Part shown: in pieces, positions 19,217 to 61,883 of the stretch
Layout of the letters: every line of letters begins with the position of its first letter
Numbering within the stretch: the first letter of the stretch is position 1
Virus record (IMG/VR): IMGVR_UViG_3300042888_002402
From: a virus
Strand: one strand, 5' to 3'
Length of the DNA stretch: 64,000 nucleotides
Notes under the pieces: generated by a model
Seen by the model: the letters and a program-made list of their open reading frames with translations, nothing else
What the model was told of the DNA's origin: nothing
Databases searched by the model: none
Position numbers and translations under genes: made by a program

Positions 19217-20124
19217 TTAAAATAATTCCATTTAAGGGTTGCGTTAACATATGCTTCTTCCAGCAAATCTAATTCTGGTAATGTTACACTGCTATTTGTT
19301 AGTAGTTGTTCTACTAGACTATCACACTTGTGTTTTGAATTTTTATATGGTTGTCGAATTAAAAATTCTTCGTGTATTTTTACAATTCTATCTTGACAAT
19401 TATAACTTAGTTGTGCCCAGTCAGCAAGTTTTTTAATTTCTAGTAAGAATTGAGTTGTATTATAAAAACATGAAAAGGGAAATACATATACTTGTAACGA
19501 TTCACTGTATTTTACATCAAGCTGTCGAGCCATAAATCCCATCTTTGTTGGATTTTCAAAACCAATTTGAAAAAATTCTCGAAGGACCTTGCGTGGACAA
19601 TCAGGCAATTCAGATGACAATTCAAGTAATTTTAAATTATGTTGTGTTCTACATTCATCCTGAATCCATGTAGGTAATTTTTTAAAATCATCTAGGGTAT
19701 TGATATCTGGCCAAGATGAATCTTTAACTGCATGGTAACTTTGTCGTACTTGATTTACAAAAAAATTATCTATTAATGTGTCGAGTACCCATATGTAAGA
19801 TGAAGTGTTTAACTTATTGAATGTGTCTATTTCAAGTAAATTATTGTCAATATTCCAGCCACCTGCTCTTAATAAACTAATTTGTTGTAATTGTAATAAA
19901 TCAGTGGTATCGATTTGTATACTAACTATTTTGTCTGATACAAATGGTACATTGCTGTAAGAGTAATGATCCGCATAAAATATCTTTTGTGATTTATAAC
20001 GTTTGTTATGCGCCGCGCCAAGATTACTAAACGGTAATCCATCAACTGCTACTCCTGCTATGACATTGCATACAAATTCTAAATAATGTCCATGGGCACC
20101 ACCTTGAAAATCAACATGTATCAT
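19213..20124 (-). CDS. Hypothetical, possibly sulfotransferase-like, carrying the SWP module
   Basis: N-terminal DFQGGAHGHYL loop; SWP module 19651-19737. Confidence 0.5.
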   Translation of the reverse strand: MIHVDFQGGAHGHYLEFVCNVIAGVAVDGLPFSNLGAAHNKRYKSQKIFYADHYSYSNVPFVSDKIVSIQIDTTDLLQLQQISLLRAGGWNIDNNLLEIDTFNKLNTSSYIWVLDTLIDNFFVNQVRQSYHAVKDSSWPDINTLDDFKKLPTWIQDECRTQHNLKLLELSSELPDCPRKVLREFFQIGFENPTKMGFMARQLDVKYSESLQVYVFPFSCFYNTTQFLLEIKKLADWAQLSYNCQDRIVKIHEEFLIRQPYKNSKHKCDSLVEQLLTNSSVTLPELDLLEEAYVNATLKWNYFK

Positions 20125-20125
20125 A

Positions 20126-20800
20126 TCACCAACCTGCTTTCTGTAATATATCCTTGGTGTATTCTTGATCAGCTGGATAGTCTTGAAACTTTTTCATCCA
20201 AAAGTCAGAATCAACATATGGCCAAATCATAGCAATTTGTTCAGACGTCAGTTCTGACAAAAACTTTTGTCCAGACTCAGAATTATATATGACCCAAGGA
20301 CTTATACGTCCGCTAGCAATTGCATGGCATATGGCATTCGAATTACCATAACGTAAACAATCGTGTGTTGGGTTACCTGTTTGCTCTTGCCATGTAATGC
20401 CAAATTCAATGGCTCTAGACAATGCATCATTGATATTTTCCACACGCAAATAATCTAACAGATACTCTGTATATGTGCTGTCTCGGCACCAATGATCAAT
20501 TTTTTTATTTTGTTTAAGCACATACTCGATAAATCTAGCAGGATTTATTGCTCGAATATCCACACAATACCGTCCAAATTTTACAAATGCCTTGTAATAA
20601 GGACTATCAGCAAAATCATCAAATGTTTTTAACTTTGCCGAACCTTGGGTTAATTGATAAAATTTTAAGTATGCTTGTAATCCTAATTGAACGCCACGCT
20701 CTGATTGTTCCTGTCTTCGACGGCGTGGCTCACAACTATGTACCAAAAGACTGGTTTCTTTTATAAAATCTTTTTTACAATACTGGCATGCGTAGGTCAT
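20126..20800 (-). CDS. Hypothetical protein with N-terminal zinc finger
   Basis: YACQYCKKDF...HSC. Confidence 0.7.
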   Translation of the reverse strand: MTYACQYCKKDFIKETSLLVHSCEPRRRRQEQSERGVQLGLQAYLKFYQLTQGSAKLKTFDDFADSPYYKAFVKFGRYCVDIRAINPARFIEYVLKQNKKIDHWCRDSTYTEYLLDYLRVENINDALSRAIEFGITWQEQTGNPTHDCLRYGNSNAICHAIASGRISPWVIYNSESGQKFLSELTSEQIAMIWPYVDSDFWMKKFQDYPADQEYTKDILQKAGW

Positions 20801-21525
20801 TGGTTTATATGCGTATATAATATGTTGGCAATTTGTTTATGTCCGATTATGTTTGGATGATAATCATCTACTGTTACAGTAGAATTGGTTTGTTGGCAAA
20901 ACTGTATCATACTTGGACCAGGATTTAGTTTGATAAAATGTCTATTAAACTTATTTAATACTGTTGTTAGATACGAATTGTTAAAATCATTCATTGTCAA
21001 AAAATAAAAATCTATATTTCGATTTTCTAATAAAGTAAATAAAAATTCAACATAATTTGTAGTTAAATATTCTATTTGTTCAATTCCAATATTTTTTTCT
21101 ATATCTTTTATTATTTTATTAGATCGATTAAGATACGAATACGGTAGTAGGGTATGGTCCCAAGGTATATTTTTGTCGTCAACTCCAGGATGGTTGTACA
21201 AACAAGGCGCATCAAATCGTGCTGGGTCTGAAATATTTACAATTACGAGTGTGTCAGTTGAGTTATAGCCAAATCTATTTAAACATTCTAATATACTGTT
21301 TGCTATTAATATATTTCCATGGCCGGCAGCTGCAGTGTTAACTAAACTTTTAACATTTAGCTTTTGTGCTAAAAATCCAGCCCATGATTTACTGTGTTTT
21401 GGAATAAATTCTGTATCATATGCAAAACTACAACCGCCATCACTAGACAAAGATGGAGGTGATCCGCCAATTCCGTCGCTGGTAAAACTGCAGCCACTTA
21501 CAAGTAAATGTTTATATACTTTCAT
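20797..21525 (-). CDS. SGNH-like protein
   Basis: SGCSFT, NTAAAGHGN, DDYHPN. Confidence 0.7.
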   Translation of the reverse strand: MKVYKHLLVSGCSFTSDGIGGSPPSLSSDGGCSFAYDTEFIPKHSKSWAGFLAQKLNVKSLVNTAAAGHGNILIANSILECLNRFGYNSTDTLVIVNISDPARFDAPCLYNHPGVDDKNIPWDHTLLPYSYLNRSNKIIKDIEKNIGIEQIEYLTTNYVEFLFTLLENRNIDFYFLTMNDFNNSYLTTVLNKFNRHFIKLNPGPSMIQFCQQTNSTVTVDDYHPNIIGHKQIANILYTHINQ

Positions 21526-21980
21526 TTTATTTTTTCTTGGCCAAGTTCACGTAGATGTGCATCAATTTCTTTTTGTGTTGTTATTTTGCTTAGTAAGTCA
21601 GCATCCGACCCTTTGAGATTGGGAAATATGGTCATCAATTGTTTTTTCTTTGTACCAGCATTGGCTGCATTTTCGTCTTTTTTCTTGGGACTTATCCATT
21701 GATGGCGATGGGCACCCATGCCAGGGCTCACTGTGCTTGCACACAACCATTGCAATTGTGGATGACGATTAATAGCAAAAAAATGTTTGTTTAATCTTTC
21801 GTTGGTGCTGATCACGTAAAACTCTTGCAGGTCCCGAGATCCTTGTACACTGCTACCCCAACGTATCATTAAAAAATTACTAAACTTTTTCTTTTCTTCA
21901 TCGGTGAGATCAGTGTAAAAGTTTTGATTTTTTAAATCAAACTCACGCATTTCATTAGCAATGTTTAATTTATCACTCAT
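21522..21980 (-). CDS. Probable clamp-loader small subunit (gp62-like)
   Basis: KKFSNFLMIRWGS...QWI; size and replication context. Confidence 0.5.
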   Translation of the reverse strand: MSDKLNIANEMREFDLKNQNFYTDLTDEEKKKFSNFLMIRWGSSVQGSRDLQEFYVISTNERLNKHFFAINRHPQLQWLCASTVSPGMGAHRHQWISPKKKDENAANAGTKKKQLMTIFPNLKGSDADLLSKITTQKEIDAHLRELGQEKIK

Positions 21981-38100: not shown

Positions 38101-39005
38101 CGGTAAATGTAAGGATCTTGATCCTTAAGCAATCGTGAACGCTTTTTCTCTTGAAAAAAATCTGCTATTCTCTGTAGCCAAACAGCAACCAGGCTAGGTT
38201 CCGCCTCAAGAAACTGATTACTAATAGACCGCGCCCATTGTTCAGATCCTTCAACTGTTAAGTGATTATTGTCAGGGAGTAGTAGACCTCTTTCAAAGCC
38301 ATACTCAAATGGTGTTCGGGCAATATAATTTCTCCAATTTATTCTGCCAAACAATCTATGCTCCTTAGGTAGCCTGCCAAAACTTTTATATCCCTTACCA
38401 AATGGATTTTTGTCAAAGGTAAATCGATATGGAATTTTGTGGTGGTCTAAAAAATCGCAACAAGAAACAACATGATTAAGTGTTAGTTCTTCGTGATAAG
38501 CACGATTGTTCATATACTGTATCATGGCAAAGTTTTGTATCCTGCCTTCAACGGACAAAGGATTATACCAAAGCAGATCAGCATTATAACATTCTTGTTG
38601 TATATCAATCGGCAGATTTATAAAATCATCTACTGTTTCGATATTAGGCCAACTTTCAGCACGAATATTTTTATAGCTGTCACACAGTTCAGTAAACTTG
38701 TTTCCGTCAGAAAACCAGTATCCAACATTGTTGATTACGCCATAATATTTTTGTTGTTCGAATAACGACTTTGTGGTGTCAGTAAGAGGCAATTGAAGAT
38801 CACCGAACGATAAATTGCTCCATACAATAACAACAAAGTCTGGCTGGTCAGATAAATCAATGGTGTTTACAACCGAATCAGATATAAATTTATTACCAGC
38901 GCCGCTTCGAGCTAGATTAATAACATCATGCTCGGGGAAAATTTGTTTGATCCAGTTTTGGCCTTCGACATAACTGCCGCCAGTTATTAAAATCTTTTTA
39001 GACAT
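38097..39005 (-). CDS. SGNH-like protein carrying the SWP module
   Basis: TGGSYV, NLARSGAGN, DNNHL; module 38589-38675. Confidence 0.65.
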   Translation of the reverse strand: MSKKILITGGSYVEGQNWIKQIFPEHDVINLARSGAGNKFISDSVVNTIDLSDQPDFVVIVWSNLSFGDLQLPLTDTTKSLFEQQKYYGVINNVGYWFSDGNKFTELCDSYKNIRAESWPNIETVDDFINLPIDIQQECYNADLLWYNPLSVEGRIQNFAMIQYMNNRAYHEELTLNHVVSCCDFLDHHKIPYRFTFDKNPFGKGYKSFGRLPKEHRLFGRINWRNYIARTPFEYGFERGLLLPDNNHLTVEGSEQWARSISNQFLEAEPSLVAVWLQRIADFFQEKKRSRLLKDQDPYIYR

Positions 39006-40063
39006 TACTCTTCGGCGGGCTCTTCTTCAGTACTTACTGTTTCTTTCTGATTAGCAAAATCAGACATTACTTTGTCTAAACATTCATCATCATTGCGTTC
39101 CCATCCCTTGCGGAACTTCTTGATAATTTCACCATCACTGGTAGTAAACACAAGACTGTTGCCTTCTTTCTTGAGCAGACCTTTTTTCTCAATTAAATCA
39201 GTCAAGCCAGAATACGGACTCATTCCGGTTTCATAAGGAATTTTAACCTGTACGCCTTCAAATGGTTTAGCGTAGCGTGTTTTCATTACCTTACATGCGG
39301 CACGAATACCCATGACATCAGTAATTTTGTTGCCATCCTCATCTTCTTTGAGCTTGAGTTTTTTCATAGCAACAACAATTGAGCTTGCATAAACGAACCC
39401 TTGTCCACCGCTGATTTTGTCATCTGGATCAAACATGTCTTGACTAGCATATGTGTGATTGGTACAAACCAGCCCTACATTATAACTACCAAACATGTTT
39501 ACACAGTTACGAACTAGACTGGTCAGTGCTTTGGGTTTACGACCCATGTCGCCTTTCATATCTCCAGCGTCAAATTGATTAACGTCGGTCGGAGTAAGCA
39601 ACATGCCCAATGAGTCAATTACAAACAACACCTTAGGGCGTTCGCCATCTGGTAATGATTTATAATCACTCATGAATGTAGAAATAGTCTTTGCTACATC
39701 ATCAATCATGGCCATTGATAGTTTTAACAACTTGCTATCACCAGTGTCAACACCAAGATCATGCAACCATTTTTCATCTAGTGCATTCTCCGAGTCAATC
39801 AGCACCACATAAATGCCTTGCTCCTGTGCGTTCTTAATGATGTTGCCGGAACAGATGTAGCTTTTGCCCGCGCCAGATTCACCAGCAAAAACCGTGACCT
39901 TGCCCAGTGGCACCCCTCTGTTAAAGTCTCCAGAGATTAGATAGTTCAATGCATAGTTGCCTGTTGAGATCCAATCTGTAGGATCATTGAAACCAATTGA
40001 CAGTCCGTCAATGCTTTTTGTAATTTCCTTGCGGAATTTTGATACGTCGAATGGTTTTCCCAT
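39005..40063 (-). CDS. uvsX: RecA-like recombinase UvsX
   Basis: ISTGNYALN, AGESGAGKS, IDSE, IDSLG, TNHTY, SGG. Confidence 0.95.
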   Translation of the reverse strand: MGKPFDVSKFRKEITKSIDGLSIGFNDPTDWISTGNYALNYLISGDFNRGVPLGKVTVFAGESGAGKSYICSGNIIKNAQEQGIYVVLIDSENALDEKWLHDLGVDTGDSKLLKLSMAMIDDVAKTISTFMSDYKSLPDGERPKVLFVIDSLGMLLTPTDVNQFDAGDMKGDMGRKPKALTSLVRNCVNMFGSYNVGLVCTNHTYASQDMFDPDDKISGGQGFVYASSIVVAMKKLKLKEDEDGNKITDVMGIRAACKVMKTRYAKPFEGVQVKIPYETGMSPYSGLTDLIEKKGLLKKEGNSLVFTTSDGEIIKKFRKGWERNDDECLDKVMSDFANQKETVSTEEEPAEE

Positions 40064-40075
40064 GTTATTTCCTTG

Positions 40076-40246
40076 TTAACAAATTAATTTATATATTGAC
40101 ATAAAATTATATTATTTTTTTTTATGTAATCTGATCCGATTAGTTGATCCGGTAGATCTTGTATGGCAGCAATATAATATTCTATACTATGCATTTTACA
40201 GTATTCAATTAACATTGTCAATGCTCTTAGATGTTCTTTGGCTAAT
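40076..40246 (-). pseudogene. Possible remnant of an SGNH-like gene
   Basis: Frame LAKEHLRALTMLIEYCKMHSIEYYIAAIQD resembles the helix-strand segment of the SGNH paralogs. Confidence 0.3.
40193..40221 (-). promoter_or_regulatory. Sigma70 promoter upstream of uvsX
   Basis: TTGACA-17-TAAAAT. Confidence 0.7.
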
Positions 40247-40259
40247 TAACAAATGTTGG

Positions 40260-41213
40260 TTAGTCATGTTTTTTTAAAACCTCCAAGTATCGGTTACTAA
40301 AGTAATGATCATAATTATACTCAATTGTATCTTGTTCTATTAGATATAAATCATGCCATTCAGCAGGTGTTAAATGACTAAATTTTGAAATCATAGTTAT
40401 TAGCTCAACCAACCGTTCAACAGGATTTTTTATACTGTCAAATCTGTAGTCAAACAGTTTAGTGTATCGTTTAAATCCATGATATTTTTCTACATGAGCA
40501 TGCCATCCAGGTTGGGCGTATGCCAAAAACAGGCCACGTGTTACTATACTGTATAAGAATTTTTCTGTTACAAATGGATAATAGCTAGTTGCCGCAGTTT
40601 CGCTAACAATATGCAAAAAACTTTCAGTTAATTTTGATTCTAAATTATGAATATTTTGATTGTGTTCAAATCTTACATGTCCAAAACTATTTGTAGATTG
40701 AAAAAATTCTTCAGAATGTTCATTAACAAAAAATTTAAGGTAAAAGTTATCTTGGTCGTTAACATAATCAGTTATGTGACCATTTAACATATTTTTTGTG
40801 TAAGAAAAATTTTTACTACAATAATTGTTATTAAAATATCCAAATTTTGACAATATAGAAACTAATAATTTTCTACTTACGTGTGGCGACCCGTTAAAAC
40901 TGCAAATAAAATTTTTGTAGTTTAATGTTGGATGGATGGTGTAATTAACAAAATGTTTGAAATTTAATCTATTTTGAAATTCTGCGTAATTTTTGATGTT
41001 AAGAGTATTGTAGTGTGATAATTTCAAAAAATCAATTTGATATTGTGTGTAAATTTGATTTTTACATTTATTTTTGAGAAATACGTCTAGTAATCGATTT
41101 TTAAAGTTTGCATCAAATCCGCCAAGATGATCAAATAGTATCAAGGGTTCGTCTTGAGTAAACACAAGAGTTCCATTTACTAAGTCCAGATAGTGCTGTG
41201 TTGTAATTTCCAT
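40260..41213 (-). CDS. GT10-like (GT-B) hypothetical glycosyltransferase
   Basis: IVSET...FVTEKF...FDYRFD. Confidence 0.55.
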   Translation of the reverse strand: MEITTQHYLDLVNGTLVFTQDEPLILFDHLGGFDANFKNRLLDVFLKNKCKNQIYTQYQIDFLKLSHYNTLNIKNYAEFQNRLNFKHFVNYTIHPTLNYKNFICSFNGSPHVSRKLLVSILSKFGYFNNNYCSKNFSYTKNMLNGHITDYVNDQDNFYLKFFVNEHSEEFFQSTNSFGHVRFEHNQNIHNLESKLTESFLHIVSETAATSYYPFVTEKFLYSIVTRGLFLAYAQPGWHAHVEKYHGFKRYTKLFDYRFDSIKNPVERLVELITMISKFSHLTPAEWHDLYLIEQDTIEYNYDHYFSNRYLEVLKKHD

Positions 41214-41214
41214 A

Positions 41215-41943
41215 CTAAATTATAGGCATTAAATAATTATCTACATACCATGCATGTGCATCTGCATCTGGATAGTGGGGATTAAAAAACTTAAATTTTT
41301 GTTCAATTGACAAATTAATAAATCCTCTACAATCAGCATCACGTACAAATTTAGTTAAATTTATTTTGTTGTAAAGGGCAAAATTAAAATCTTTTACACC
41401 ATCGTCGTGATATTGAATAAGATTAGTAATTGGATAAGAATTACACATAATATAATTTGCACCGATACTATCAAGATAATACTGCGCAGATAGTATGGTA
41501 GCCCAAGCTGAATTAACATGCATAGACTGATTATAAAAATATTTATAGTATTGATTTTTGTATCCTCGTGGCACTGCACCATTGATATACCAACCATGTT
41601 GATTGTTATATTGATTATTGTAGTCTACAAATTGTGCCTTGTACCCATCTAACCAACTTGCAAATTCTATATCGTTTTGCAGGTGCGGAACAGCAGAATT
41701 AACATAAAGATCGAGTCTATCAGCTGATGGCCACATTATAATACATAAAGTATCAGGATTATTAACAAAAGAAGTATATAATTTTTGAATAATATATGTG
41801 TATCCAGCTCCTCTTTCTGCAAAATTATAAAGTTTGCAACCGAGTTGGTTACTCAATAAATCAGCCCAGGTATCAATGTAATTGTCTTTGGTCAGACTAC
41901 ACCCGTAGACAAATAAATTTTGATATCTGGGCTGTACTGTCAT
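41215..41943 (-). CDS. SGNH-like protein
   Basis: YGCSLT, NFAERGAG, IMWP, PHYP. Confidence 0.65.
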   Translation of the reverse strand: MTVQPRYQNLFVYGCSLTKDNYIDTWADLLSNQLGCKLYNFAERGAGYTYIIQKLYTSFVNNPDTLCIIMWPSADRLDLYVNSAVPHLQNDIEFASWLDGYKAQFVDYNNQYNNQHGWYINGAVPRGYKNQYYKYFYNQSMHVNSAWATILSAQYYLDSIGANYIMCNSYPITNLIQYHDDGVKDFNFALYNKINLTKFVRDADCRGFINLSIEQKFKFFNPHYPDADAHAWYVDNYLMPII

Positions 41944-41950
41944 TCAATGA

Positions 41951-42937
41951 TTATTGTTTTTGTCTTGCACGAATCATGGCCAAAATGTCTTCGGCTTTCT
42001 GTGCTGGCTTAGCTGCTGCTACTGGTGCAACGGGTGCTGGCACATCATCCTCGTCATCAAAGTTTGATACTACCACAGTTGGTGCTACTGCTGTAATTTC
42101 ATGCACGTCGCCGTGCCCATCAACAGTCAATGCGGGTGCGCCTGCTGGTGCTTGCACACCTGCTGGTCGGAAATACTGACCCCAACGGGTGGTGTCGTAT
42201 GCTTGTCCATCTACTGATGCTTCAAACATTTCTTTGATTACTTTTAACTCAACATCAGTTGGTTTCTTTGGCAAGAATGTTGAAAGATCAAACAGGCCAT
42301 GTTTTTCTATTGCAGCCTGTTCTGCTTCTGTGAGTGCAGATTCTTTACGGGCCCACTTGGAACTGTTGTAGTCAGCAAATCCACCTTTGGCTGTTTTAGT
42401 GATGCGGAAGTCTAGGCCTTTCAACAAGTCTGTTGGCAATTCTTCCAGCTCAGGATCCATCAATGCACCTTTGATCAAGGTAAAAATTTGTGGACCAATG
42501 ATAAATCTACGAATAGGGTTCTCAGGAGTCTTGTCTTCGTTGATGGGATTTTCACGTACAAAACCTTGGAAAATATAACTGCGTTTTTTCCAGTATTTAC
42601 GACCCATGTCTTCAAGACTCTTGTCCTTGAACCATGTGCGAACTTCTGCCAGTACTGGGCACGGATCGCCCCACATTTCAACACAAGGAACTTGTACAAA
42701 TACTTGTTTGGATTCCATTTCTCCTTTGACGCCATTGAATGGCAGTCGAATCATGGCTCGTTCGGCCCAGAAAAATGTGTTTTTTGTGTTTGCATCTGGA
42801 AGGAAGCGTAAGGTAGCTGATTGTCCTTCTTCCATGTTCCAGTGTGGGTAAATTGAATTGTCTCCCCCACCTTGTGATTGAGAACCTTTGTTCTCGCTTG
42901 CTGCCAGTCTTGCTCTAATGTCTGCTAATGATGCCAT
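41951..42937 (-). CDS. gp32: Single-stranded DNA-binding protein
   Basis: LRFLP, C...CP, YWKKRSY, GLDFRI, ADYNSSKW, acidic linker. Confidence 0.92.
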   Translation of the reverse strand: MASLADIRARLAASENKGSQSQGGGDNSIYPHWNMEEGQSATLRFLPDANTKNTFFWAERAMIRLPFNGVKGEMESKQVFVQVPCVEMWGDPCPVLAEVRTWFKDKSLEDMGRKYWKKRSYIFQGFVRENPINEDKTPENPIRRFIIGPQIFTLIKGALMDPELEELPTDLLKGLDFRITKTAKGGFADYNSSKWARKESALTEAEQAAIEKHGLFDLSTFLPKKPTDVELKVIKEMFEASVDGQAYDTTRWGQYFRPAGVQAPAGAPALTVDGHGDVHEITAVAPTVVVSNFDDEDDVPAPVAPVAAAKPAQKAEDILAMIRARQKQ

Positions 42938-42941
42938 ATTA

Positions 42942-42999
42942 TGTTGCCTTTCTAAAGTTTTTAATATGTTGCCTATCAATGATAGTGTTTTTGTTGCCT
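42942..42999 (-). repeat. Three AGGCAACA direct repeats at exact 25-nt period in the gp32 leader
   Basis: tgttgcct at 42942, 42967, 42992. Confidence 0.9.
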
Positions 43000-43010
43000 G
43001 TGATACCAAT

Positions 43011-43072
43011 AAAAAAGCGTATACACATGTTAGTAGTATATACGCTTTGTTTATCAGCGTCAAGAGTATTTA
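43011..43072 (-). promoter_or_regulatory. gp32 control region: late box, sigma70 promoter and overlapping terminator-like hairpin
   Basis: TAAATA 43067-72; TTGACG-17-TATACT 43063-43035; 13-bp stem 43014-43048 + T tract. Confidence 0.75.
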
Positions 43073-45179: not shown

Positions 45180-46745
45180 TTATCGTCTGGCACTGATAAA
45201 GGGCATGGGTGCAATAATAACATCACCGTGATCGCGCATTTGACTGTCCATTTCTGTGTGATATGTTTGTAGCAGCTGCATCATGCGCACTGCCAACAAT
45301 GCAGCCATGACCAAATCGTCAGTTTCTCCGGGTTTGGCAGCGTAACTTACTCCGTGTGCTACAAATGTTTTTAATTCTGAAACTAAAGGTATACTTCTGA
45401 TTTTCATGCGCCCAGATTCTATTAGAGTTTTAAATTTATTACAAGCCGCCAATTTGGGTTTTTGTGTGGTATTAAACCCTTTGCGATATCTGCGTCCAGA
45501 ACTTCCACTGTTAGGATCACTTAGGAAATATCCTTCGATATTTTCCTCGCCGTACTCTGCAATGGAAATCAAGGCTGCTTCCCCAATGGTGTTGTTTTCA
45601 ATACTGTAATATACTTTTTGTGGATCTTTTACAACTTCATTGATGTGCTTGCATATGTCAGCTAGGATTCTAACCTGTTCTGGAATTGGCGTTCTATTGT
45701 GGCGCCACTCACCAATTTGTTCTGTGGTGTTGGCTTCAAATATTTGTATGGCAGCAGGATCACCACCTGTACCCAAACTAGGATCCAGTGCTACAACATA
45801 GATTCGGTCTGCCCGGGGTTTTTGATACCAACGCACTTGTCCAGTACGATATGCAGGCTCAATGCCATATAATTCAATTAGTTTAGTAGGTGCTATCAGA
45901 GTCTCATCATTGATGATAAATTCGCAGTCCATCTCTCGACGGAAACGATCCTCGCCTAGTTGCGCTCGTTGTTCTTCAGCCCACTTTTTGTCGCGATCTG
46001 GATGTTCATTCCAGTAACTACGATATGCTTTGAATCCATTAATACCTACTACTGTAGGATTGCCGTAGGAATCTTCGCAACGATTGGCACCTTTCCACAG
46101 TAGCGCAAATTGATCTTCGTCCGAGTTTGGAGTTGATGTAATAATTGCTTTACCACCAGTGGCCAGTGTGGGCGATATGGACGTCCAGAATTCTTTGGCA
46201 ATACCTGGTCGCACAAACGCAAACTCATCTGCGTATAGCAGTGATATACTCATACCACGACCGGTATTTTCTGTAGTTGTTGCGCTTACTATACGACTTC
46301 CATTTTCAAAATCCAAGTTACCTTTGTTGTAACTGGTACACCCTGCACGAATATGATCCGGGCACAGTTCATATGCATAACGTATGCGTTGCATTATCTC
46401 TTGTGATCCTGTGTACTTGTGCGCAGCAATTAAAATTGTACTGTCTGGCACAAACATAGCATACCACAACAAATACCCTGCAGCCGATGTTGACTTGCCG
46501 GTTTGTCGCGGCATCATTGATATCGAAAATCTATGATTATGATAGGTTTCAATCAATCGTTCTTGGTACTCAAACGGATGATACAACATTTTTCCTTTGG
46601 TGGGATGTTGTATGTGAAAATAATTGTCCATAAAATACATAGGCCCTGTGACAGGATCTGCACATTTTATAAATTCTTCTAACTGTGTCTCATTGTAACT
46701 ATGCCGCTTATGAGGTGCTTTGACTAGTACTGCTTCTGCGGCCAT
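45180..46745 (-). CDS. gp17: Terminase large subunit
   Basis: PRQTGKS, YADEFAF, ITSTPN, ALDPSLG, DDLVMA. Confidence 0.95.
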   Translation of the reverse strand: MAAEAVLVKAPHKRHSYNETQLEEFIKCADPVTGPMYFMDNYFHIQHPTKGKMLYHPFEYQERLIETYHNHRFSISMMPRQTGKSTSAAGYLLWYAMFVPDSTILIAAHKYTGSQEIMQRIRYAYELCPDHIRAGCTSYNKGNLDFENGSRIVSATTTENTGRGMSISLLYADEFAFVRPGIAKEFWTSISPTLATGGKAIITSTPNSDEDQFALLWKGANRCEDSYGNPTVVGINGFKAYRSYWNEHPDRDKKWAEEQRAQLGEDRFRREMDCEFIINDETLIAPTKLIELYGIEPAYRTGQVRWYQKPRADRIYVVALDPSLGTGGDPAAIQIFEANTTEQIGEWRHNRTPIPEQVRILADICKHINEVVKDPQKVYYSIENNTIGEAALISIAEYGEENIEGYFLSDPNSGSSGRRYRKGFNTTQKPKLAACNKFKTLIESGRMKIRSIPLVSELKTFVAHGVSYAAKPGETDDLVMAALLAVRMMQLLQTYHTEMDSQMRDHGDVIIAPMPFISARR

Positions 46746-47893
46746 AGCAGCTCTCCAAATTCTGGCCATAGTTTGGCAAATTTTCCAACGGCATCTGGAT
46801 GGTATTTGTTTTCAATATCATCAACAAATGTTTTTAATTTATCTAACTGTGTTGAATCAGGCAGATCTTTGGTATTAAAGGTTGCAAGGGCAGTGTCAAA
46901 AAAATCTTGATCATGTTGGTCTACATCGAAATTATCGTACATCAGTTGAATTTCTTTTGCGACCAACATGGCAATTTCTTTTCCGTAATTTCTAGGATCT
47001 AATTCTATAGGACCGTTAAGATTTTGCCATTTAATCACCAATCCGCGATCCTGAGCAAATTTTTTAAATTTACACAAATTAGTTGCGTTGTATAAATTAT
47101 AAACTGCGTGTATGCCGCCCCAGTGCCCATTATTTTTTATCAATGACTGCACAAGATCAAGATTGTACAACATCAAATTCCAATCTGCGCCGTATCTTAC
47201 GTATTCAAATTGCTCACCAATGTTGTCAAAACTGAGTGACCAACTGACACGTTGTCGCTGGCTAAGTTTTTTAAATATTCGATTATTTTCAAGTGGATTG
47301 CTGAGATTTGTAATTATTGTTACAATACAATCTGGTGGGATGACATCGAGTAGTCGGTCATTCTCTGGCAGTAACAAAGGTTCGCCGCCAACCAAGGCCA
47401 CTTCTTTTATTTTATCGTAGTGTTTTTCAATAAAATTACATACATCGACATAATAATGTCTTAGTTTTGTGTTATTGTTGATAGAGATTTTTTTTATCCC
47501 TGCCCATTTTGAACTTTCAATTGGACCACAATAGTTACAACTTAAATTGCAGGTGTTATTCCATCGCACATCAACAATTACCGGATAATCATATTCAAGA
47601 CTGGCCTGTGACGTATCAAAATTTTCATTTGCCCTATTATGCCATGCTCGCTCGCTCTCGCTGCCGTGTTTCTCTCTTGTTACACAACCTGCACAATATC
47701 GAGGATGCGGAATGCCTTGTTTTAGACTTTCACGTATTTCTTTAAGTTTATCTCCATTGAGAATTTCTTCTATGCCTTGAGAATTAAGATTGCCCAACAT
47801 GTTGGGATTACCGGCACAGCAAGTTTTAACATTACCGGTAGTATTGATATGCAGGCCACGCCAGGGAGCGGCACAATAGAATTTATCAGTCAT
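46724..47893 (-). CDS. Radical SAM protein with N-terminal SPASM/twitch-like domain
   Basis: CAAPW...CC...CAGC; CNLSCNYC; GGEP. Confidence 0.92.
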   Translation of the reverse strand: MTDKFYCAAPWRGLHINTTGNVKTCCAGNPNMLGNLNSQGIEEILNGDKLKEIRESLKQGIPHPRYCAGCVTREKHGSESERAWHNRANENFDTSQASLEYDYPVIVDVRWNNTCNLSCNYCGPIESSKWAGIKKISINNNTKLRHYYVDVCNFIEKHYDKIKEVALVGGEPLLLPENDRLLDVIPPDCIVTIITNLSNPLENNRIFKKLSQRQRVSWSLSFDNIGEQFEYVRYGADWNLMLYNLDLVQSLIKNNGHWGGIHAVYNLYNATNLCKFKKFAQDRGLVIKWQNLNGPIELDPRNYGKEIAMLVAKEIQLMYDNFDVDQHDQDFFDTALATFNTKDLPDSTQLDKLKTFVDDIENKYHPDAVGKFAKLWPEFGELLWPQKQY

Positions 47894-49702: not shown

Positions 49703-50221
49703 TTACCACGCACGGCATGACCAATATCGTGCCTTGGTTCTAGGACCTGGGTTGTCACAATTATGTCTTGCTCTAAAACTTTTTCTACGGCCCGGACTAG
49801 ACTTTTTAATTCGCATGTTGGGATCGCCAAAGTTAACTTTTTTAATGTTTCCAGTGGCAGGATCTTTAACATACACTTTGGATTTCTTTACATCGCCAGC
49901 CATGGGCTTGCCCAACGGCACTTCACGTCCGTGATACTTGGCTTCATCCATGTCGTCTTCGCCCATGCTACCACCGTAGCCCATTGTTTCCAACACAACA
50001 TCTTCAGTTAAATCTTCTAGAGGATCTACAAGTTGTTGCCATTCGTCCAACACTGTGATGATTTTGTCAGTGGCTGCCAACAGTATTCCATCTTCAGATG
50101 ATTCAAGAATATAAGTTTCAATCAGTGTGCCATTGGCCAGCTCAAACGCAAAGTCATCGCCGGCAGCCGGCGTGTTCAGCCATTGCTCACTTTCAGAGAT
50201 GTATTCGCGAAATGATTTCAT
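49703..50221 (-). CDS. Basic C-terminal domain protein (DUF6321/DUF5754-like) with CTS-like N-terminus
   Basis: MKSFREYISE; VNFGDPNM...RRKSFRARHNC...ARYWSC. Confidence 0.7.
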   Translation of the reverse strand: MKSFREYISESEQWLNTPAAGDDFAFELANGTLIETYILESSEDGILLAATDKIITVLDEWQQLVDPLEDLTEDVVLETMGYGGSMGEDDMDEAKYHGREVPLGKPMAGDVKKSKVYVKDPATGNIKKVNFGDPNMRIKKSSPGRRKSFRARHNCDNPGPRTKARYWSCRAW

Positions 50222-52389
50222 GATGCTTTGTATGCGTTGAATAATTTAAACAAGCTACGCTCTAGTGTAACATTCTCTTCCATGGTGCTGGTGCGTTGAC
50301 GTTGACCAGCAATTACAGGAATAGTTGTTTGACCAGTGGACTTGGGACCGTTTAGTCCACCTGAATATTGCATGGCATTGGGACTTGACTCTGCATTAGT
50401 AGGCCAATCAGGAGCATTTTCAGAAGCATTTTCAGAAACATTTTCATCAGAACCGCATGTTGGGCAAGCTGCTTCTGGTTCTTTATGCATGCCAGCCAAT
50501 CTTAGCAATTGTGCCAAGTTTTCAGCTTCTTCTCCGTCTGCACTGACTGTGATAGATTTGTTTCCGTCGGAATTTACATTTACGCTGACATTCATGCCTT
50601 CGGTAATCATACGTTCGACTTGACTATTGATGCCTTCATAAACACCTTTGCCAAAACTCATGCCGCCCGACTTGGCCTTGCCACTGGGGGCAGCAGTTGC
50701 AACAGATCCAGAAGTTGTTGTTTCTTCAACTTCTTCTTTTTTCCCGCTGACTTTTTCTGGCAAGCCTTTTTGTTTGGTGCTGGCAAAATCTTCAGCGTCT
50801 TTTTTCTTCATAGTTTTAGCAACTTTACCAACTTCTTTTGAAGTGGCTTTTTCGCCTTTTTGTGTGGCATGAACCATGCCCATAAAACGTTGTTGCTTTT
50901 TGCTTACTGCTTTTTCATCCAGCTCTTCGCTGTCATCTTGATCTGTTTGATTCTGCATGTAGTCGTCCACTGCAGTCATCATGCCTTCGATCTTGGCCAA
51001 CTTGGCTTGTACCCATTCTGGCAAGTTGTCGTTGTCGCCTAGTATTTTTTCCAAGGCTTGTGCATGACGCACAATAGTCTTGATATCGTCTTTGGCCATT
51101 TCGCCTTCTTGATCATATTCACCACGATCTACAATATCGTCTTCACCTTCTTTGACGCGGCCGCCTTTGTGTTTATAGGCCTTGGCAGTCACACGCTCGG
51201 GTTTCTTCTCTGGACCTGCTGGCCGACCTTTTCTTTTTGGCATTCCGTCATCGGCTTTTTTATCATCATCATGGTCACGCGATCTAGCATGGTGGCGCAG
51301 ACCTGTTTTAGTTTTTTCAATTTCACCACCTGTGGAACTGCGCTTGCGCTCGCCAGTTTTCATACCTGAGGTGCTATGGGCACGGTCTTTGACATCTTTC
51401 ATCATGTCATCCCAACCTTCTTCCATTTCACCACGGCGTTTGTTCTTGACATGACCTACAGCAGATCTCATTGCATCTGCTGCAACATCACCTAACATTT
51501 CGTCAACTTCTTTTTTGGCACCAGCGATTTTATCAGCAAAGGTAATTTTGTTTGCAGGTGGTGCCAGCTTGGCAAACTTCTTTAGTTGTGGGGCGTTTAA
51601 TTTTTCGCCCAATCCTGTTGTATCAGCTTCTTTGACAGGATATTGTTTGCCACCTACATTAATTTTTTCACCAGGTTGAATCCCGTCAGCTTTGGCCTTG
51701 CGAACTGCATTGCCAAATGCATTACCTTCGTCGGTCATGCCCTGACTCTCATCATACTTGTCATACTTGTTGCGAATGTTGCTCATGGTTTTGTCACTGG
51801 CATGCTCACGGCCAGCTTTTTGCAAGGCCTTCATACCTTCATCGCCATATTTCTTTTTACCAATGGCTGCTTGGAAGGCACTTTCTTCCATACTGCCGTC
51901 TGAATTAATTTTATGCATGGCGGCACTTTGTTGTGCGTTAGCATACCTTTGACCTCTTTCTGGATACATCGGGTCTTTTCCATAAAATTCTCGCTGTTTT
52001 TTAACTTCTTTGTTCATTATTCCTTTGTGCGCATCAATCGCTGCCTGGCGGTCCGCTGGATTGTTAGTGATGTTTGCTTTTAGTCCTTTTGCCTTGGCGC
52101 CAACAGTTGCCATAGTATCATTAAATTTGTCAAACCCTTTGGCCAATGCACTACCCAGGCCTTCGTCTACGGACTCTTCTTCAACTTGGCCTTTGGCTCG
52201 CATTTTTGCCAACTGTGCACCAGCAATACGAGCACCTTTTTCACCACCGCCAGTTTTTTTGGCCAAGGCTGCAAAACCTGTTGTGGCATTGTTGTGCTTG
52301 CCCATGTCGCGCTCGTTCAGTTGCTCAGATTCTGGTTTAGCACGAATGCCGTCAAGTTTTTTATTTAAATCGTAGAAAAAATTGTCCAT
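50218..52389 (-). CDS. 723-aa modular head protein (apparent polyprotein; includes a DUF3008-like module)
   Basis: Basic modules separated by [LVM]xE sites; KAVSKKQQRFMG...FASTKQKGLPEKV. Confidence 0.7.
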   Translation of the reverse strand: MDNFFYDLNKKLDGIRAKPESEQLNERDMGKHNNATTGFAALAKKTGGGEKGARIAGAQLAKMRAKGQVEEESVDEGLGSALAKGFDKFNDTMATVGAKAKGLKANITNNPADRQAAIDAHKGIMNKEVKKQREFYGKDPMYPERGQRYANAQQSAAMHKINSDGSMEESAFQAAIGKKKYGDEGMKALQKAGREHASDKTMSNIRNKYDKYDESQGMTDEGNAFGNAVRKAKADGIQPGEKINVGGKQYPVKEADTTGLGEKLNAPQLKKFAKLAPPANKITFADKIAGAKKEVDEMLGDVAADAMRSAVGHVKNKRRGEMEEGWDDMMKDVKDRAHSTSGMKTGERKRSSTGGEIEKTKTGLRHHARSRDHDDDKKADDGMPKRKGRPAGPEKKPERVTAKAYKHKGGRVKEGEDDIVDRGEYDQEGEMAKDDIKTIVRHAQALEKILGDNDNLPEWVQAKLAKIEGMMTAVDDYMQNQTDQDDSEELDEKAVSKKQQRFMGMVHATQKGEKATSKEVGKVAKTMKKKDAEDFASTKQKGLPEKVSGKKEEVEETTTSGSVATAAPSGKAKSGGMSFGKGVYEGINSQVERMITEGMNVSVNVNSDGNKSITVSADGEEAENLAQLLRLAGMHKEPEAACPTCGSDENVSENASENAPDWPTNAESSPNAMQYSGGLNGPKSTGQTTIPVIAGQRQRTSTMEENVTLERSLFKLFNAYKAS

Positions 52390-53529: not shown

Positions 53530-53967
53530 TTATCTTTTCTTAGCACCTTGATGGAACATGTCATCTTCGGTTATTACGCGAAACACAAGACCGTTTCGTC
53601 TACACCATTTGGTAGCTTGATCCCATTTGGCATAGTTTAGTGCCACAACCGCACGATCCCTAGCAGATGCTTTGCTTTCTAGTACGCTTTGTTTTTTGGG
53701 TTTAATCTCAATTACTTCAGCTTTCACAATATTATCTTTGGTGCGGTAGGTGATCAAAAAATCTGGAATATAAATGCTTTGCTTGCCTGTGATGGGATTG
53801 CGATATGGTATTGATATACTTTCACTAGCCCATTGTAATATGCTGTCATTGGTGTCTAGGAAATGCATAAAACTCATTTCCCACCCTGATCTAAATCTTG
53901 GAGTATTTTTACCCACATACTTGTTGGGATTTTGTACTTGATATGTACCTTGGCGGTAATTGGCCAT
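53530..53967 (-). CDS. gp4: Head completion nuclease (gp4/TnsA-like)
   Basis: NPNKYVG, RSGWE, WASE, YIPDF, EIKP, NYAKW. Confidence 0.9.
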   Translation of the reverse strand: MANYRQGTYQVQNPNKYVGKNTPRFRSGWEMSFMHFLDTNDSILQWASESISIPYRNPITGKQSIYIPDFLITYRTKDNIVKAEVIEIKPKKQSVLESKASARDRAVVALNYAKWDQATKWCRRNGLVFRVITEDDMFHQGAKKR

Positions 53968-59200: not shown

Positions 59201-59585
59201 TACCAACTGGTCTAGTTAATGTAGCAGTCAACTGTGATAGATCAATGTCTACACGTTGTACGTAGCATCTATTAGATATACCAAGGGCCGAATACGCAGC
59301 CAATAAGCCGTATTCGTTAAGTTCGTAGCCATTGATTGGTGTTCCTGCTGCAGTGTTATAAAAGAACGGAACCCCAAAAGTAGATAACAAATCTCGTTGA
59401 CTTGTAATCAAGAATGTTTGATTAACAGTTGCTGCAGTTGTGCCTACTGCTATGCCAGTTCCAGCACCTGATATCTTATTTGACGCAGTGGCCAACAAAA
59501 TATAAGGAACAGAATTGGTTGCAGCTGGTATGTAATTACTTTGATCAATTACTGTAACTTGTACGCCGGGGGATAATAGAGCCAT
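56265..59585 (-). CDS. gp18: Tail sheath protein (enlarged)
   Basis: LLSPGVQV, PWLAPAGTRRG, INPI, RINVARL, LFEPND, IEPVKAIEFI. Confidence 0.95.
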   Translation of the reverse strand: MALLSPGVQVTVIDQSNYIPAATNSVPYILLATASNKISGAGTGIAVGTTAATVNQTFLITSQRDLLSTFGVPFFYNTAAGTPINGYELNEYGLLAAYSALGISNRCYVQRVDIDLSQLTATLTRPVGSPPNNTYWLDTANTAWGIFEWNQVTGAFTNQVPLVITDTANLETGSTVPLQSFGSIGQYAVTATSTTLPGYYKRGGPTSAQTSATELSDFNNTWVLIGSDDWKTAWPTVQGTLAPTSLTAGNTITINGTVVTVPVSPNNTVEGLSNAINTAAITGVYSAHIGGKLELYANSTATSDGSTEGTGIVNITASTGTVLANLGIVATTYFAPAYLASPNYTAPNWRSTAPQPEPTGSVWQKTNNVNLGTNIVMKRYNSTLGTFVQQACPVYYNDAAAIYALDPSGGGTNIPAGSTYAEVNPYYTELSGNGGTSGFLILERYATGPTIITGTDTTPGPFVSGNSFSIRATQPGTASLTSPPALVTLLGTTATDFVSAVSAAAVPYVSASINSSGALVFTHSTGGDIILANVTGTPVATAGFSTACVGVRSLDVTTNSLILSNWVGSTTFTYTASNSAPNQDPASGQLWYYSAIDQADIMISDNGVWVGYQNANPDVRGYDLSQTNATGPQFSPTAPTTQNNSSASPLVYGDLWIDTSDLENYPLINRWQDVDGQDQWVTLSNADQTTENGVLFADARWAPNGTTDPVTDPIPSIVSLLTSDYLDLDAPDPALYPQGILLFNTRRSGYNVKQFEANYFNATSYPPPDTLPTVTSTWLTASGLRIDGSPYMGRQAQRAMIVQALKAGIDSNTTIRENQNVFNLIACPQYPELASNMVALNNDRNDTGFVVVDTPLRLSPTDVVTWATNNNGLGIPAGDGLTTNDSYAATFYPSCQTTDLSGNSVVQPPSHMMVRTIIRSDSVSYPWLAPAGTRRGVVDNAFSLGFIDATTGEYTRNTINQGLRDTLYQNDINPITFIPGVGITNFGNLTLQATTTALDRINVARLVAYLRGRLQLIGNNYLFEPNDSITRAQITNSVTSLMIDLVNKRGIYDYLVVCDLSNNTPATIDRNELYVDIAIEPVKAIEFIYIPLRIQNTGTIAAQTTA

Positions 59586-59610
59586 GACAAAATCCTTTTT
59601 TCAATATAGA

Positions 59611-59676
59611 TATTTAGTAAAGATTGAAAAAAGAGCAGGTGTAAGAGTCCCTACTAGTAGGTTTTGCGTATAAATA
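59611..59676. promoter_or_regulatory. Divergent T4-type late promoters
   Basis: TAAATA minus 59611-16 and plus 59671-76; same box precedes about 23 genes in the window. Confidence 0.75.
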
Positions 59677-59681
59677 TCAGC

Positions 59682-60026
59682 ATGAGACCCATCTGTCAGA
59701 CATGTAATCAAAGACCCAGAGCCGTTGCGTACCATCGAAATGAGCAGGTACAATATCGTAAAATGTGTGAGTATTGTATTAAACGAAAACGGCGGGTTCC
59801 TGCTCCGACGGCTAGATGGAAATTAGCAGGGTATAAGAAAAAATCCACATGTGATCGGTGTGGATTTAGATCCAAATACACTGGTCAATTATTGGTGTAT
59901 CATATAGATGGAAATTTAAATAATAATACGTTGAGAAATTTAAAAACTATATGTTTAAACTGCACCGTTGACATTAAAAAAGCAGATCTACCTTGGACAC
60001 CTGGTGATCTTGAACCAGATTATTAA
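59682..60026 (+). CDS. Zn-binding HNH-like protein
   Basis: Four CxxC pairs; HIDGNLNNN...NL..ICLNC. Confidence 0.75.
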   Translation: MRPICQTCNQRPRAVAYHRNEQVQYRKMCEYCIKRKRRVPAPTARWKLAGYKKKSTCDRCGFRSKYTGQLLVYHIDGNLNNNTLRNLKTICLNCTVDIKKADLPWTPGDLEPDY

Positions 60027-60621
60027 TTTGAGAAAATAAATTATCTGTGGTAGAATTGTTGTCTACTGTAGCGTCAAACTCAGTTCCTATCCATGCAGTT
60101 TCACTGGCATGAATATTTTCTTTTTCTAACCAGCTGATAGCCGATGTGGATCCTTTATTTGCTTGTATAGCAATGTCATACCAGTGCGGTCTAATTCCTC
60201 GTTCTACACAAACTATAATACCGCCGGCATTTTTAATTGAGTTAACTTCGTTAGGAAAACGACAGTCACTGATAACAATATTGTCTTTACTATTTTGTAG
60301 TTTATGTTCTAAACTGGCAATCCAAATATCATCGTGAAATGCTTGTCGACAAACTTCTGTACCCCAGTATTGCAGGATCCAACGAGGAGTAAGATAAGGC
60401 ATATCAAGGCGTTTGGCCCACCATGAATCAACTTGTTCACGCCATTCTCGGGCTTGCGTAGTACGTCCTTCAAGCATGGTTCGGTCCCAGCCAAATACCT
60501 GGGCTACAGCATCTTTTAGACTGTTGGCAAAACTTTCTCTACAAAATTGATGTGCATCCACAAGGTAGTCAGCCACAGTATCTTTTCCACTTCCAATGAA
60601 TCCACACACGCCAATAATCAT
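59974..60621 (-). CDS. gp1: Deoxynucleoside monophosphate kinase
   Basis: GFIGSGKDT, TPRWILQYWGTE, ISDCRFPNE, HASE. Confidence 0.92.
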   Translation of the reverse strand: MIIGVCGFIGSGKDTVADYLVDAHQFCRESFANSLKDAVAQVFGWDRTMLEGRTTQAREWREQVDSWWAKRLDMPYLTPRWILQYWGTEVCRQAFHDDIWIASLEHKLQNSKDNIVISDCRFPNEVNSIKNAGGIIVCVERGIRPHWYDIAIQANKGSTSAISWLEKENIHASETAWIGTEFDATVDNNSTTDNLFSQINNLVQDHQVSKVDLLF

Positions 60622-60638
60622 ATCAATTCCTTTTAAAT

Positions 60639-61883
60639 TTAATTTTTAGTTTTATAATTAAAAACATTAATGCACTCTTGTTGAATCCAGTCTGGCAGAT
60701 TAACAAAATCATCTTCATTTAGGCAGTCTGGCCAACTGTCATCTTTTATTCTCTTATACCAATTGCACCATTGTGACTGGCTGGCACTATATGTCATTTC
60801 GTCTATTAATCTTATAACTTCTTCTATTTTACAATCTAAGGCATATTTGTCAATTAATTGTAGTAATCTATTAGAATTGTCTTGAGCCAATTCTAGCAGT
60901 CTTTGATAATTATACTCAACATCTTTTTCAATGTCATCTACATGATTATGCATATTGTCAATCCAATATTTGGTGTTGATCACAATTGCATCAAGCCTTT
61001 TTTCAGAAGACGCAATGTTATCGTAGTGCATTTTTGTGTAATTTTCAAATGTTTTAAATCCCATTTTTTTAAGTTTTTTTAATGTTCCTTTACTTGATGC
61101 CATTAAAAATGGGCGACGATTAATAATTGACAACCAAGTTTTTTCAGTTATCCACGGTGTAGATTTTTTAAAATTTGTTTCACTGATTACTTGAAACAAA
61201 CTGTTTTTATATAACTCAAGCTGATATGGAATGCCGCGGGGCACTGTCATACCAAATTTATGTAACATAGTTTCCATAGTTATACTATCTGGATTATTAC
61301 TATGGGTTAATAAAAATAAATTGTATTCATCATCCGAAAGCTCTTTTAAGAATTTTCGAGACCGTTGACGTGAATTATCATCGTTTACAAATAATGACCA
61401 AGTTGCATACGGCAACAAATTACGTTGTTTAAACTTATGAAGAAGACGAATTCTGTGTATTTTATATGGTTTTCCGGTCAAGAACAAAAATTTTTTATTA
61501 CTAGGATCCCAATTTAGTGCGACAGCAGATTCGTTATTAACTATTAATCTATAATAGGTCATTAATAAGAAAAAATCAACAAAAACTATTTCATCTACTA
61601 ATGATTTATCAATGATAGTTACTTGCTTTTGGTACCAAGAATTAATTATTAATAAAATTTTTGTTGTAGGATAATATTGTTTAATTAAATTAATTAATTT
61701 TATAAAATTTTCCTGCCAGGATTTTGTAGAGCTTGCTTCCCATAACTTAGTGAGCACCACACAATGATTAGGATATTTTATTAATGTGGCATGGACAGTA
61801 TTAAATAAATCTGTTACAGCCGTGAGATTTTTATCATATTGTAGCCTATCTATGTTACAAATAAAATGATTTTTAAAAATCAT
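60639..61883 (-). CDS. GT10-like hypothetical glycosyltransferase with C-terminal SWP module
   Basis: VISET...ITEKTW...PFL...GFKTF; module 60672-60758. Confidence 0.55.
   Translation of the reverse strand: MIFKNHFICNIDRLQYDKNLTAVTDLFNTVHATLIKYPNHCVVLTKLWEASSTKSWQENFIKLINLIKQYYPTTKILLIINSWYQKQVTIIDKSLVDEIVFVDFFLLMTYYRLIVNNESAVALNWDPSNKKFLFLTGKPYKIHRIRLLHKFKQRNLLPYATWSLFVNDDNSRQRSRKFLKELSDDEYNLFLLTHSNNPDSITMETMLHKFGMTVPRGIPYQLELYKNSLFQVISETNFKKSTPWITEKTWLSIINRRPFLMASSKGTLKKLKKMGFKTFENYTKMHYDNIASSEKRLDAIVINTKYWIDNMHNHVDDIEKDVEYNYQRLLELAQDNSNRLLQLIDKYALDCKIEEVIRLIDEMTYSASQSQWCNWYKRIKDDSWPDCLNEDDFVNLPDWIQQECINVFNYKTKN

Follow-up and report, generated by a model that had tools for sequence, protein, structure and literature searches.

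When one small domain is found again and again on enzymes of unrelated chemistry, it usually signals a target or a point of assembly that they share. This is the case for the RiPP recognition element (RRE) in the pathways of ribosomally synthesized and post-translationally modified peptides (RiPPs), for the dockerins of cellulosomes, and for the ubiquitin-binding motif (UBM) in translesion synthesis. In both the PqqD-like RRE and the dockerin-type or other docking domains, a small portable domain lies at variable positions in unrelated tailoring enzymes that have one common target. We have analyzed a module of about 41 amino acids that is found in three proteins encoded by a stretch of viral DNA of 64,000 nucleotides (IMG/VR record IMGVR_UViG_3300042888_002402, the whole of which we call the window). 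Its likeness to the RRE and the dockerins is conceptual, without relation of sequence or fold. In the RRE ~85 aa form a winged helix that includes a three-stranded sheet, whereas the viral module is about half that length and is predicted to be all-helical.

Two further described systems invite comparison at the level of sequence and shape. The UBM of DNA polymerase iota and Rev1 comprises a helix, a Leu-Pro turn and a second helix within ~30 residues, and UBM2 contacts ubiquitin through F, L, P, V/L and E located at positions i, i+3, i+4, i+7 and i+10 (PMC8468184). The villin headpiece, represented by its HP35 subdomain, is a very small three-helix domain that is basic and binds F-actin.

A module shared by three otherwise unrelated proteins

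A preliminary description of the window, made from the sequence alone, had reported an ungapped block of 29 aa in three accessory enzymes. Each block is found at exactly the position reported, within an intact open reading frame (ORF) on the minus strand. The reverse complement translates into the peptides that had been quoted, while the plus strand over the same three ranges is stop-ridden nonsense. The residues said to be invariant, i.e., Y, SWP, DDF, LP, IQ and EC, are present in all three copies. We denote the carrier proteins P0002, P0003 and P0004 (Table 1). When these were compared in pairs by BLASTP the block alone matched, ungapped, with E values of 8e-8, 1e-8 and 2e-9, and nothing else was significant. 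The carriers are thus unrelated outside the block, and the full-length homology that had been named as contrary evidence is not seen. A hidden Markov model (HMM) of the three copies, applied to all six frames of the window, finds exactly three copies.

The copies share 57-64% of their nucleotides, and 45-48% at third positions. About half of the codons for identical residues are spelled differently between copies, and the longest exact shared run is 12 nt. On these values a recent DNA duplication or gene conversion was rejected. The divergence of third positions and codon spellings indicates that the copies are old and have been held by selection on the protein, and a comparison of synonymous with amino-acid conservation, proposed at the outset as a check, therefore speaks for a conserved protein element.

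The 29-aa block is the core of a module with the consensus W-x3-Y-x2-[IV]-[KR]-D-x-S-W-P-[DE]-[CIV]-x4-[DE]-F-x2-L-P-x2-I-[QK]-x-E-C, which in extended form continues after E-C as -[I]-x-[VI]-[FH]-[GN]-[YFL]. A profile of 43 columns was constructed from the three copies and run against 1.84 billion protein cluster representatives (50%-identity clusters). At E ≤ 1e-3 it matched 536 representatives, of which 33 reach E ≤ 1e-10. The analyses of host families and folding described below use the best 150 of these 536. Y11, W19, P20, L31, P32, I35 and E38 are each conserved to at least 93% across all hosts, and K/R15 and E38 almost always occur as a pair. The module sequence is acidic overall (mean net charge -3.9). 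The possibility of a disulfide or metal site formed by Cys22 and Cys39 was rejected, as each cysteine is replaced by I, V or L independently of the other; these are therefore core positions.

The module family is unnamed in any library searched, in agreement with the original failure to recognize it. Pfam gave no match to the three carriers, none naming the isolated modules at E ≤ 10 other than a single sub-threshold match to the villin headpiece, and no common family among the 150 members. NCBIfam and PHROGs gave no match to the module, and no name emerged from the Protein Data Bank (PDB). Literature searches with the motif strings returned unrelated acronyms alone, and papers on jumbo phages were without mention of the module. 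The D-x-S-W-P-D spacing is reminiscent of an EF-hand-like calcium loop; no EF-hand or dockerin match was found in Pfam, even at E ≤ 10.

The enzyme labels first given to the carriers hold reasonably well, each at its own level. P0002 was modeled by AlphaFold2 (AF2) with a predicted local distance difference test (pLDDT) score of 93. Sulfotransferases fill the top 20 rows of a VIA wide search with this model (Z 6.5-8.4; 150-187 of the 303 residues aligned) and also the top rows from Foldseek, where E is 0.04 or worse and the similarity is remote. Sulfotransferases carry the canonical nucleotide motif PKxGTTW. In P0002 the N-terminal loop reads G-G-A-H-G-[HN]-Y, and the 5'-PSB/3'-PB motifs that bind 3'-phosphoadenosine 5'-phosphosulfate (PAPS) were not recognized; neither was there a match in Pfam, PHROGs or NCBIfam, including the Sulfotransfer entries of Pfam and NCBIfam. 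The model supports a sulfotransferase fold for P0002, and because of the lack of a Pfam match and the atypical nucleotide loop we do not assign it to the sulfotransferase family. Its own family comprises 457 clusters, all annotated as hypothetical. The most conserved part of this family is the module, within which six of the seven invariant columns fall (Y130, W138, P139, L150, E157 and C158).

For P0003 the label of an SGNH-like protein is supported by invariant residues of catalytic type. In an alignment of 11 sequences S11, G37-N38 and D245-x-x-H248 are invariant, corresponding to the catalytic Ser near the N terminus, the Gly/Asn oxyanion residues and the DxxH block of SGNH/GDSL hydrolases. 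The module of P0003 lies after the N-terminal SGNH blocks and ahead of the DxxH block. The family is small (eight clusters plus two distant representatives); P0003 has no Pfam match at E ≤ 1, and a PDB profile search with its family returned chance matches without any SGNH chain. The third carrier, P0004, belongs to a family in which E235, E247 and K248 are invariant (39 aligned sequences), the last two forming a TEK motif. We take this acidic residue and the putative nucleotide-sugar-binding TEK motif to resemble those of a GT10-type fucosyltransferase. The likeness of P0004 to GT10 is thus a matter of motif, since there was no Pfam match at E ≤ 1 (Glyco_transf_10 included) and a PDB profile search of the family gave chance matches alone. 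The core of copy 3 ends ten residues ahead of the stop codon of P0004.

Table 1. Positions of module copies, carriers and related genes in the window
Feature	Position	Strand	Remarks
Module copy 1	19627..19749	-	aa 126-166 of P0002; 29-aa core 19651-19737 = aa 130-158
Module copy 2	38565..38687	-	aa 107-147 of P0003; 29-aa core 38589-38675 = aa 111-139
Module copy 3	60648..60770	-	aa 372-412 of P0004; 29-aa core 60672-60758 = aa 376-404
Carrier 1, P0002	19213..20124	-	303 aa; predicted sulfotransferase-fold protein; module internal; intact ORF
Carrier 2, P0003	38097..39005	-	302 aa; SGNH-like hydrolase or acyltransferase; module internal; intact ORF
Carrier 3, P0004	60639..61883	-	414 aa; glycosyltransferase-like, 'SET...PW-TEKTW' motif; module C-terminal; intact ORF
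P0004 paralog without module	40260..41213	-	BLASTP E 2e-6 to module-masked P0004
Candidate SGNH-like paralog without module	41215..41943		hhalign E 0.0016 over N-terminal 70 aa
Two GDSL-like paralogs without module	3793..5270 (3793-4506, 4518-5270)	-	weak GDSL_2 matches
Radical SAM gene without module	63243..63998	-	Pfam Radical_SAM; site occupied by module in relatives; 5' end beyond window
Variable island	39005..43063	-	between UvsX-like gene 39005-40063 (RecA Pfam match) and SSB gene 41951-43063 (SSB PHROG match, E 1e-64)

Host families and mobility of the module

The profile search places the module in unrelated enzyme families. With the module masked, the best 150 members split into at least 13 clusters that have no BLAST relation to one another. 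Its placement varies between these, being N-terminal, internal or C-terminal, and sometimes tandem (P0005, P0006 and P0024). In the P0004 family (44 members) the module is C-terminal. It is internal in a radical SAM family (21 members, three of which have two tandem copies) and in the P0002 family (20 members), and lies near the N terminus in a SAM-methyltransferase family (15 members). The remaining clusters comprise several N-terminal and C-terminal families together with the small P0003 family. The host domains recognized include Radical_SAM, N_Twi_rSAM, several types of SAM methyltransferase (among them the CmcI/TylF type of sugar O-methyltransferase), Asp_Arg_Hydrox, DUF6492, GDSL and Amidohydro_2.

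Within families the module is optional. Four families in the IMG/VR loci have members both with and without it. In one radical SAM family the module appears as a clean indel of ~45 aa with well-aligned flanks, located between the core and a Cys-rich C-terminal domain; three relatives have it, and three others as well as the radical SAM gene at the edge of the window do not. A match in RsoM2USA, a jumbo phage in culture, to an N_Twi_rSAM protein that bears the module begins only at residue 59, and thus excludes the module. P0004 and its module-less paralog fall into one cluster in the IMG/VR comparison, 12 of whose 30 members carry the module, and in the cluster of the GDSL-like paralogs it is present in two of 13 ORFs, internally and in IMG/VR relatives in both cases. 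The preliminary description had stated that the paralogs of all three carriers in the window lack the module. This is correct for the glycosyltransferase-like protein and weakly supported for the SGNH-like protein; no paralog of P0002, the sulfotransferase-like protein, was found within the window.

How old are these insertions? The nearest neighbor of a module comes from the same host family in 95 of 132 cases, and module identity is 36% between families versus 44% within them. The closeness of these two values points to old insertions followed by strong constraint. Taken with the range of hosts, the varied positions and the clean presence or absence within families, we regard it as almost certain that the domain is real and mobile, as had been suggested from the three copies.

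The window itself encodes radical SAM enzymes at 46724-47893 and 14305-15423. The first has a SPASM/twitch-type Fe-S domain (SPASM, aa 7-70) ahead of the radical SAM core (aa 113-254). This layout matches the NCBIfam N_Twi_rSAM of relatives, some of which add the module at the N terminus.

The internal placements raise the question of whether the module forms part of each active site. It might be a portable lid that recognizes a chemical handle common to the substrates of its carriers, such as a modified DNA base or part of a glycan or nucleotide sugar. The module of P0002 lies in the helical cap region of the sulfotransferase-like fold and is modeled confidently within the whole protein, that of P0003 lies between SGNH blocks, and that of the radical SAM family is inserted ahead of the Cys-rich domain. 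The carriers are mostly of enzyme types that tailor sugars or small molecules, and the lack of genome-specific co-variation described below is compatible with an invariant ligand. However, positions at the extreme N or C terminus, and tandem copies, are hard to square with a precise active-site role across unrelated folds. In addition members of the same family manage without the module, and so small and acidic a unit has no recognizable ligand-binding motif. We consider a role as a substrate-recognition cap rather unlikely.

It can also be asked whether the module needs a partner at all. A highly foldable acidic mini-domain could serve structure or solubility, spreading wherever it is tolerated. 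Most of the conserved positions hold prolines or residues of core type, I, V or L can freely take the place of C22 and C39, and the modules do not co-vary by genome, all in keeping with such a role. Yet the similarity of between-family and within-family identities, and the status of the module as the most conserved part of the P0002 family, indicate a constraint stronger than a passive tag needs, and the confinement of the module to a single virus clade and to tailoring enzymes points to a specific role. A purely structural function is, in our estimation, unlikely.

Predicted structure and relation to known folds

An AF2 model of the isolated module, calculated with the 150 sequences, has three helices and a mean pLDDT of 77.5. 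Helix 2-14 is followed by a loop of ten residues containing S-W-P, a short helix (25-29), the L-P turn (L31-P32) and helix 33-42. The same elements are present in the full-length model of P0002, as the end of helix 111-133, the loop, and helices 144-148 and 152-161. The consensus maps on to these as helix 1 (W-x3-Y-x2-[IV]-[KR]-D), the Ser-Trp-Pro loop, a short helix ([DE]-F-x2-L), the Leu-Pro turn and helix 3 (I-[QK]-x-E-C...).

Comparison of a 50-residue module model with known structures gave nothing at E 2.3 or better from Foldseek against the PDB, and a best Z of 3.8 from VIA wide, corresponding to generic helical pieces. In the ESM Atlas the shape search returned unrelated rows, and the feature search was without usable match. 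No PqqD match was found in Pfam among the modules and the 150 members.

A profile search of the PDB with the module gave only sub-threshold matches, which were to the UBMs of DNA polymerase iota (2kwv and 2ktf; E 0.17-0.7, best 14.8 bits). The alignment rests on F-x2-L-P-x2-I-Q-x-E. F28, L31, P32, I35 and E38 of the module have exactly the spacing of the ubiquitin contacts of UBM2, and a short helix, Leu-Pro turn and helix occur in both, the AF2 model of the module conforming to this description. Both are acidic and are found in tandem in some proteins, and while the UBM is a recruitment module the phage module may be one. There are also differences. The profile similarity does not reach significance (E 0.17), the phage module has an extra conserved N-terminal helix and Ser-Trp-Pro loop, and it sits in bacteriophages, whose hosts are not expected to have ubiquitin. 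The match of spacing is a lead, and does not establish membership of the UBM family.

The resemblance to the villin headpiece is of a similar kind. Pfam PF02209 matches the module of P0002 with E 0.005 and 17.1 bits, compared with a gathering cut-off of 27, and does not match the other two copies. Features common to the two are a very small size, three helices, an aromatic core, the segment 'F..LP.W.Q' and a G-[aromatic] at the C-terminal end. In contrast to the basic, actin-binding headpiece, the phage module is acidic, and its score falls below the Pfam gathering threshold.

Could the module then be a distant homolog of such a eukaryotic-type helix-LeuPro-helix motif, binding a β-grasp (ubiquitin-like) or filament-forming partner? 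The arguments in favor are that the pol iota UBMs are the sole PDB profile matches, with identical spacing of the UBM2 contacts, and the headpiece match with its E of 0.005. Against this, all the scores are sub-threshold, and neither a headpiece nor a UBM structure was returned with the 50-residue module model by Foldseek or VIA wide (all Z < 4). In Pfam no UBM match was found for the three modules at E ≤ 10, nor among the 150 members. Furthermore the residues in question are probably packed on the extra N-terminal helix, and would thus not be exposed. We judge such homology highly improbable.

The prediction of a complex between two copies of the module scored 0.01, which speaks neither for nor against self-association. 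If modules on different enzymes bound each other they could assemble a multi-enzyme complex without a separate scaffold, and the presence of several carriers per genome and of tandem copies in single proteins would suit this arrangement. It is less easily reconciled with records in which one copy is detectable (such as G003, a record that is 64% complete), and the uniformly negative charge of the modules should disfavor self-association. A homotypic assembly therefore seems very unlikely to us.

Viral distribution and possible function

The window derives from a large myovirus. It encodes a tail sheath of 1106 aa, a large terminase of T4 type and a tail tube protein, and the terminase is 52% identical to those of the PA5oct group of jumbo phages. 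Replication genes include DnaB-like and ResIII helicases, a Toprim primase, a RecA/UvsX-like protein, the single-strand-binding protein (SSB) and a UvsY-like protein. Also encoded are methyltransferases, several radical SAM enzymes, a GT8 fragment, and a fusion of a cytidylyltransferase with a cupin like that of mannose-6-phosphate isomerase. Metagenome contigs of the JGI and the ENA contain the same phage. Among the cultured phages of INPHARED there was no DNA match to 9.3 kb of the window, and tblastn with P0002, P0004 and a consensus-like module found nothing.

The occurrence of the module in viruses and prokaryotes was examined using a degenerate DNA pattern equivalent to WP[DE]C-x4-[DE]F-x2-LP, which covers the WP[DE]C subtype alone. 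In IMG/VR this located at least 117 loci, all confirmed by the HMM, and 95 of the 117 listed share at least one further gene family with the window. In 185,579 prokaryotic species, represented by one genome each, there were 38 pattern matches. Two of these were real, and both lie on contigs of no more than 2.5 kb in metagenome-assembled genomes from lakes. Because the pattern is limited to the WP[DE]C subtype, it is for that subtype that the module appears almost restricted to viruses.

Five large IMG/VR records (192-347 kb) were searched whole, and contained one to five dispersed copies each. Four of the five encode a sheath of ~1100 aa like that of the window. A complete genome of 346,856 bp has five copies, on an ortholog of P0002, an Asp/Arg-hydroxylase-like protein, a GDSL-like protein and two unknown proteins, while one copy is detectable in G003. 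The dispersal first noticed in the window thus recurs in related genomes, with other sets of carriers. Repeated insertion, at domain boundaries or at termini, has placed the module in tailoring enzymes of unrelated families in a clade of uncultured, largely freshwater jumbo myoviruses.

One contig differs in character. L160 (JGI 3300042969, 8620 bp) encodes a radical SAM protein with two tandem modules, together with an RNA_pol_Rpb6-like protein and a rubrerythrin, and its genes are more loosely spaced. The module may therefore not be confined to the jumbo myoviruses, and viruses of eukaryotes are one possible further setting.

Maps of the locus in 12 relatives show that the slot between the SSB and UvsX genes holds module-bearing enzymes from four different families. 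In the window this slot is occupied by the module-less glycosyltransferase-like paralog, and P0003 lies on the far side of UvsX. The pattern fits an exchange of enzymes that retain a common tag. The contents of the slot in nine loci (L004, L006, L007, L018, L038, L066, L070, L073 and L093) are DUF6492, glycosyltransferase-like proteins and two unknown families, at least one of them with the module.

What function might be served by such a unit? The same module is kept on interchangeable enzymes of different chemistry, so that its role is most likely independent of catalysis. Binding modules characteristically occur in tandem and at varying positions. The autonomous fold, the constraint, the unrelated hosts, the placement at termini and boundaries, the tandems, the optional presence, the restriction to a clade and the retention in the island together lead us to favor a docking or recruitment tag. 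The module would work apart from catalysis as a portable binding tag, bringing any carrier enzyme to a single conserved partner (a phage protein or a shared macromolecular substrate), and an enzyme newly arrived in a variable island would thereby join the pathway or site served by the others. We propose a docking function tentatively, rating its chances as slightly less than even.

Several observations weigh against this proposal. The folding of so tiny a domain would be enough to account for the near-invariant W, Y, F, L and I, the two prolines and the K/R15-E38 pair, and no clearly functional exposed patch has been demonstrated. Two modules from one genome resemble each other no more than do family-matched modules taken from separate genomes (mean excess identity 0.003, 18 pairs). 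Given this lack of genome-specific co-variation, there is no sign of co-evolution with a partner particular to each genome, and a partner would have to be highly conserved throughout the clade. Moreover, the internal modules of the sulfotransferase-fold, SGNH and radical SAM carriers are located where substrate-binding lids usually lie, and these positions fit a role in substrate recognition as well.

The docking proposal can be extended to a virus-specific address tag, a docking code whereby the clade could freely swap tailoring enzymes in its variable islands, the SSB-UvsX slot among them, with each new arrival directed to one conserved hub. A protein of the replisome or of recombination might serve as this hub, or a scaffold for virion or glycan assembly. 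In this full form the idea is possible but doubtful. The existence and mobility of an unnamed, almost virus-only mini-domain are well supported, and an address-tag role is the best that we can currently infer for it.

The module is abundant, being present in hundreds of 50%-identity clusters, nearly confined to uncultured jumbo phages, and nameless in the libraries searched. Defining it would give a partial annotation to hundreds of phage proteins now listed as 'hypothetical' and would flag accessory enzymes that belong to one functional set. It would also provide an experimental bait of ~45 residues for what these phages modify, and where. Should the address-tag reading be true, this would be a new way of organizing phage modification pathways, and would offer a handle on the target of the pathway.

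The neighbors of the carriers are of some interest in this respect. P0004 is flanked by 59974-60621, which has a faint match to a dNMP kinase (DNMK), and by 61880-62428, an Rv2179c-like exonuclease, and carriers 1 and 2 are located among replication and recombination genes. These settings raise the possibility that some carriers could act on DNA or nucleotides, rather than glycans.

Four other genes of the window were noted. An ORF of 145 aa among the tail genes (53530-53967) matches a Tn7 TnsA-like N-terminal endonuclease domain (PF08722), as judged from a Pfam match of the identical gene in L156. The gene at 1461-3089 encodes a pectate-lyase-like (RHGA/epimerase) protein with an Mtd_N-like N terminus, probably a fiber or spike depolymerase, and that at 9633-11558 encodes a DUF6267 protein of 641 aa. 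Finally, in the 723-aa protein encoded at 50218-52389, residues ~487-586 match five different PHROGs of unknown function, and this region looks like another small domain common to proteins of the virion region.

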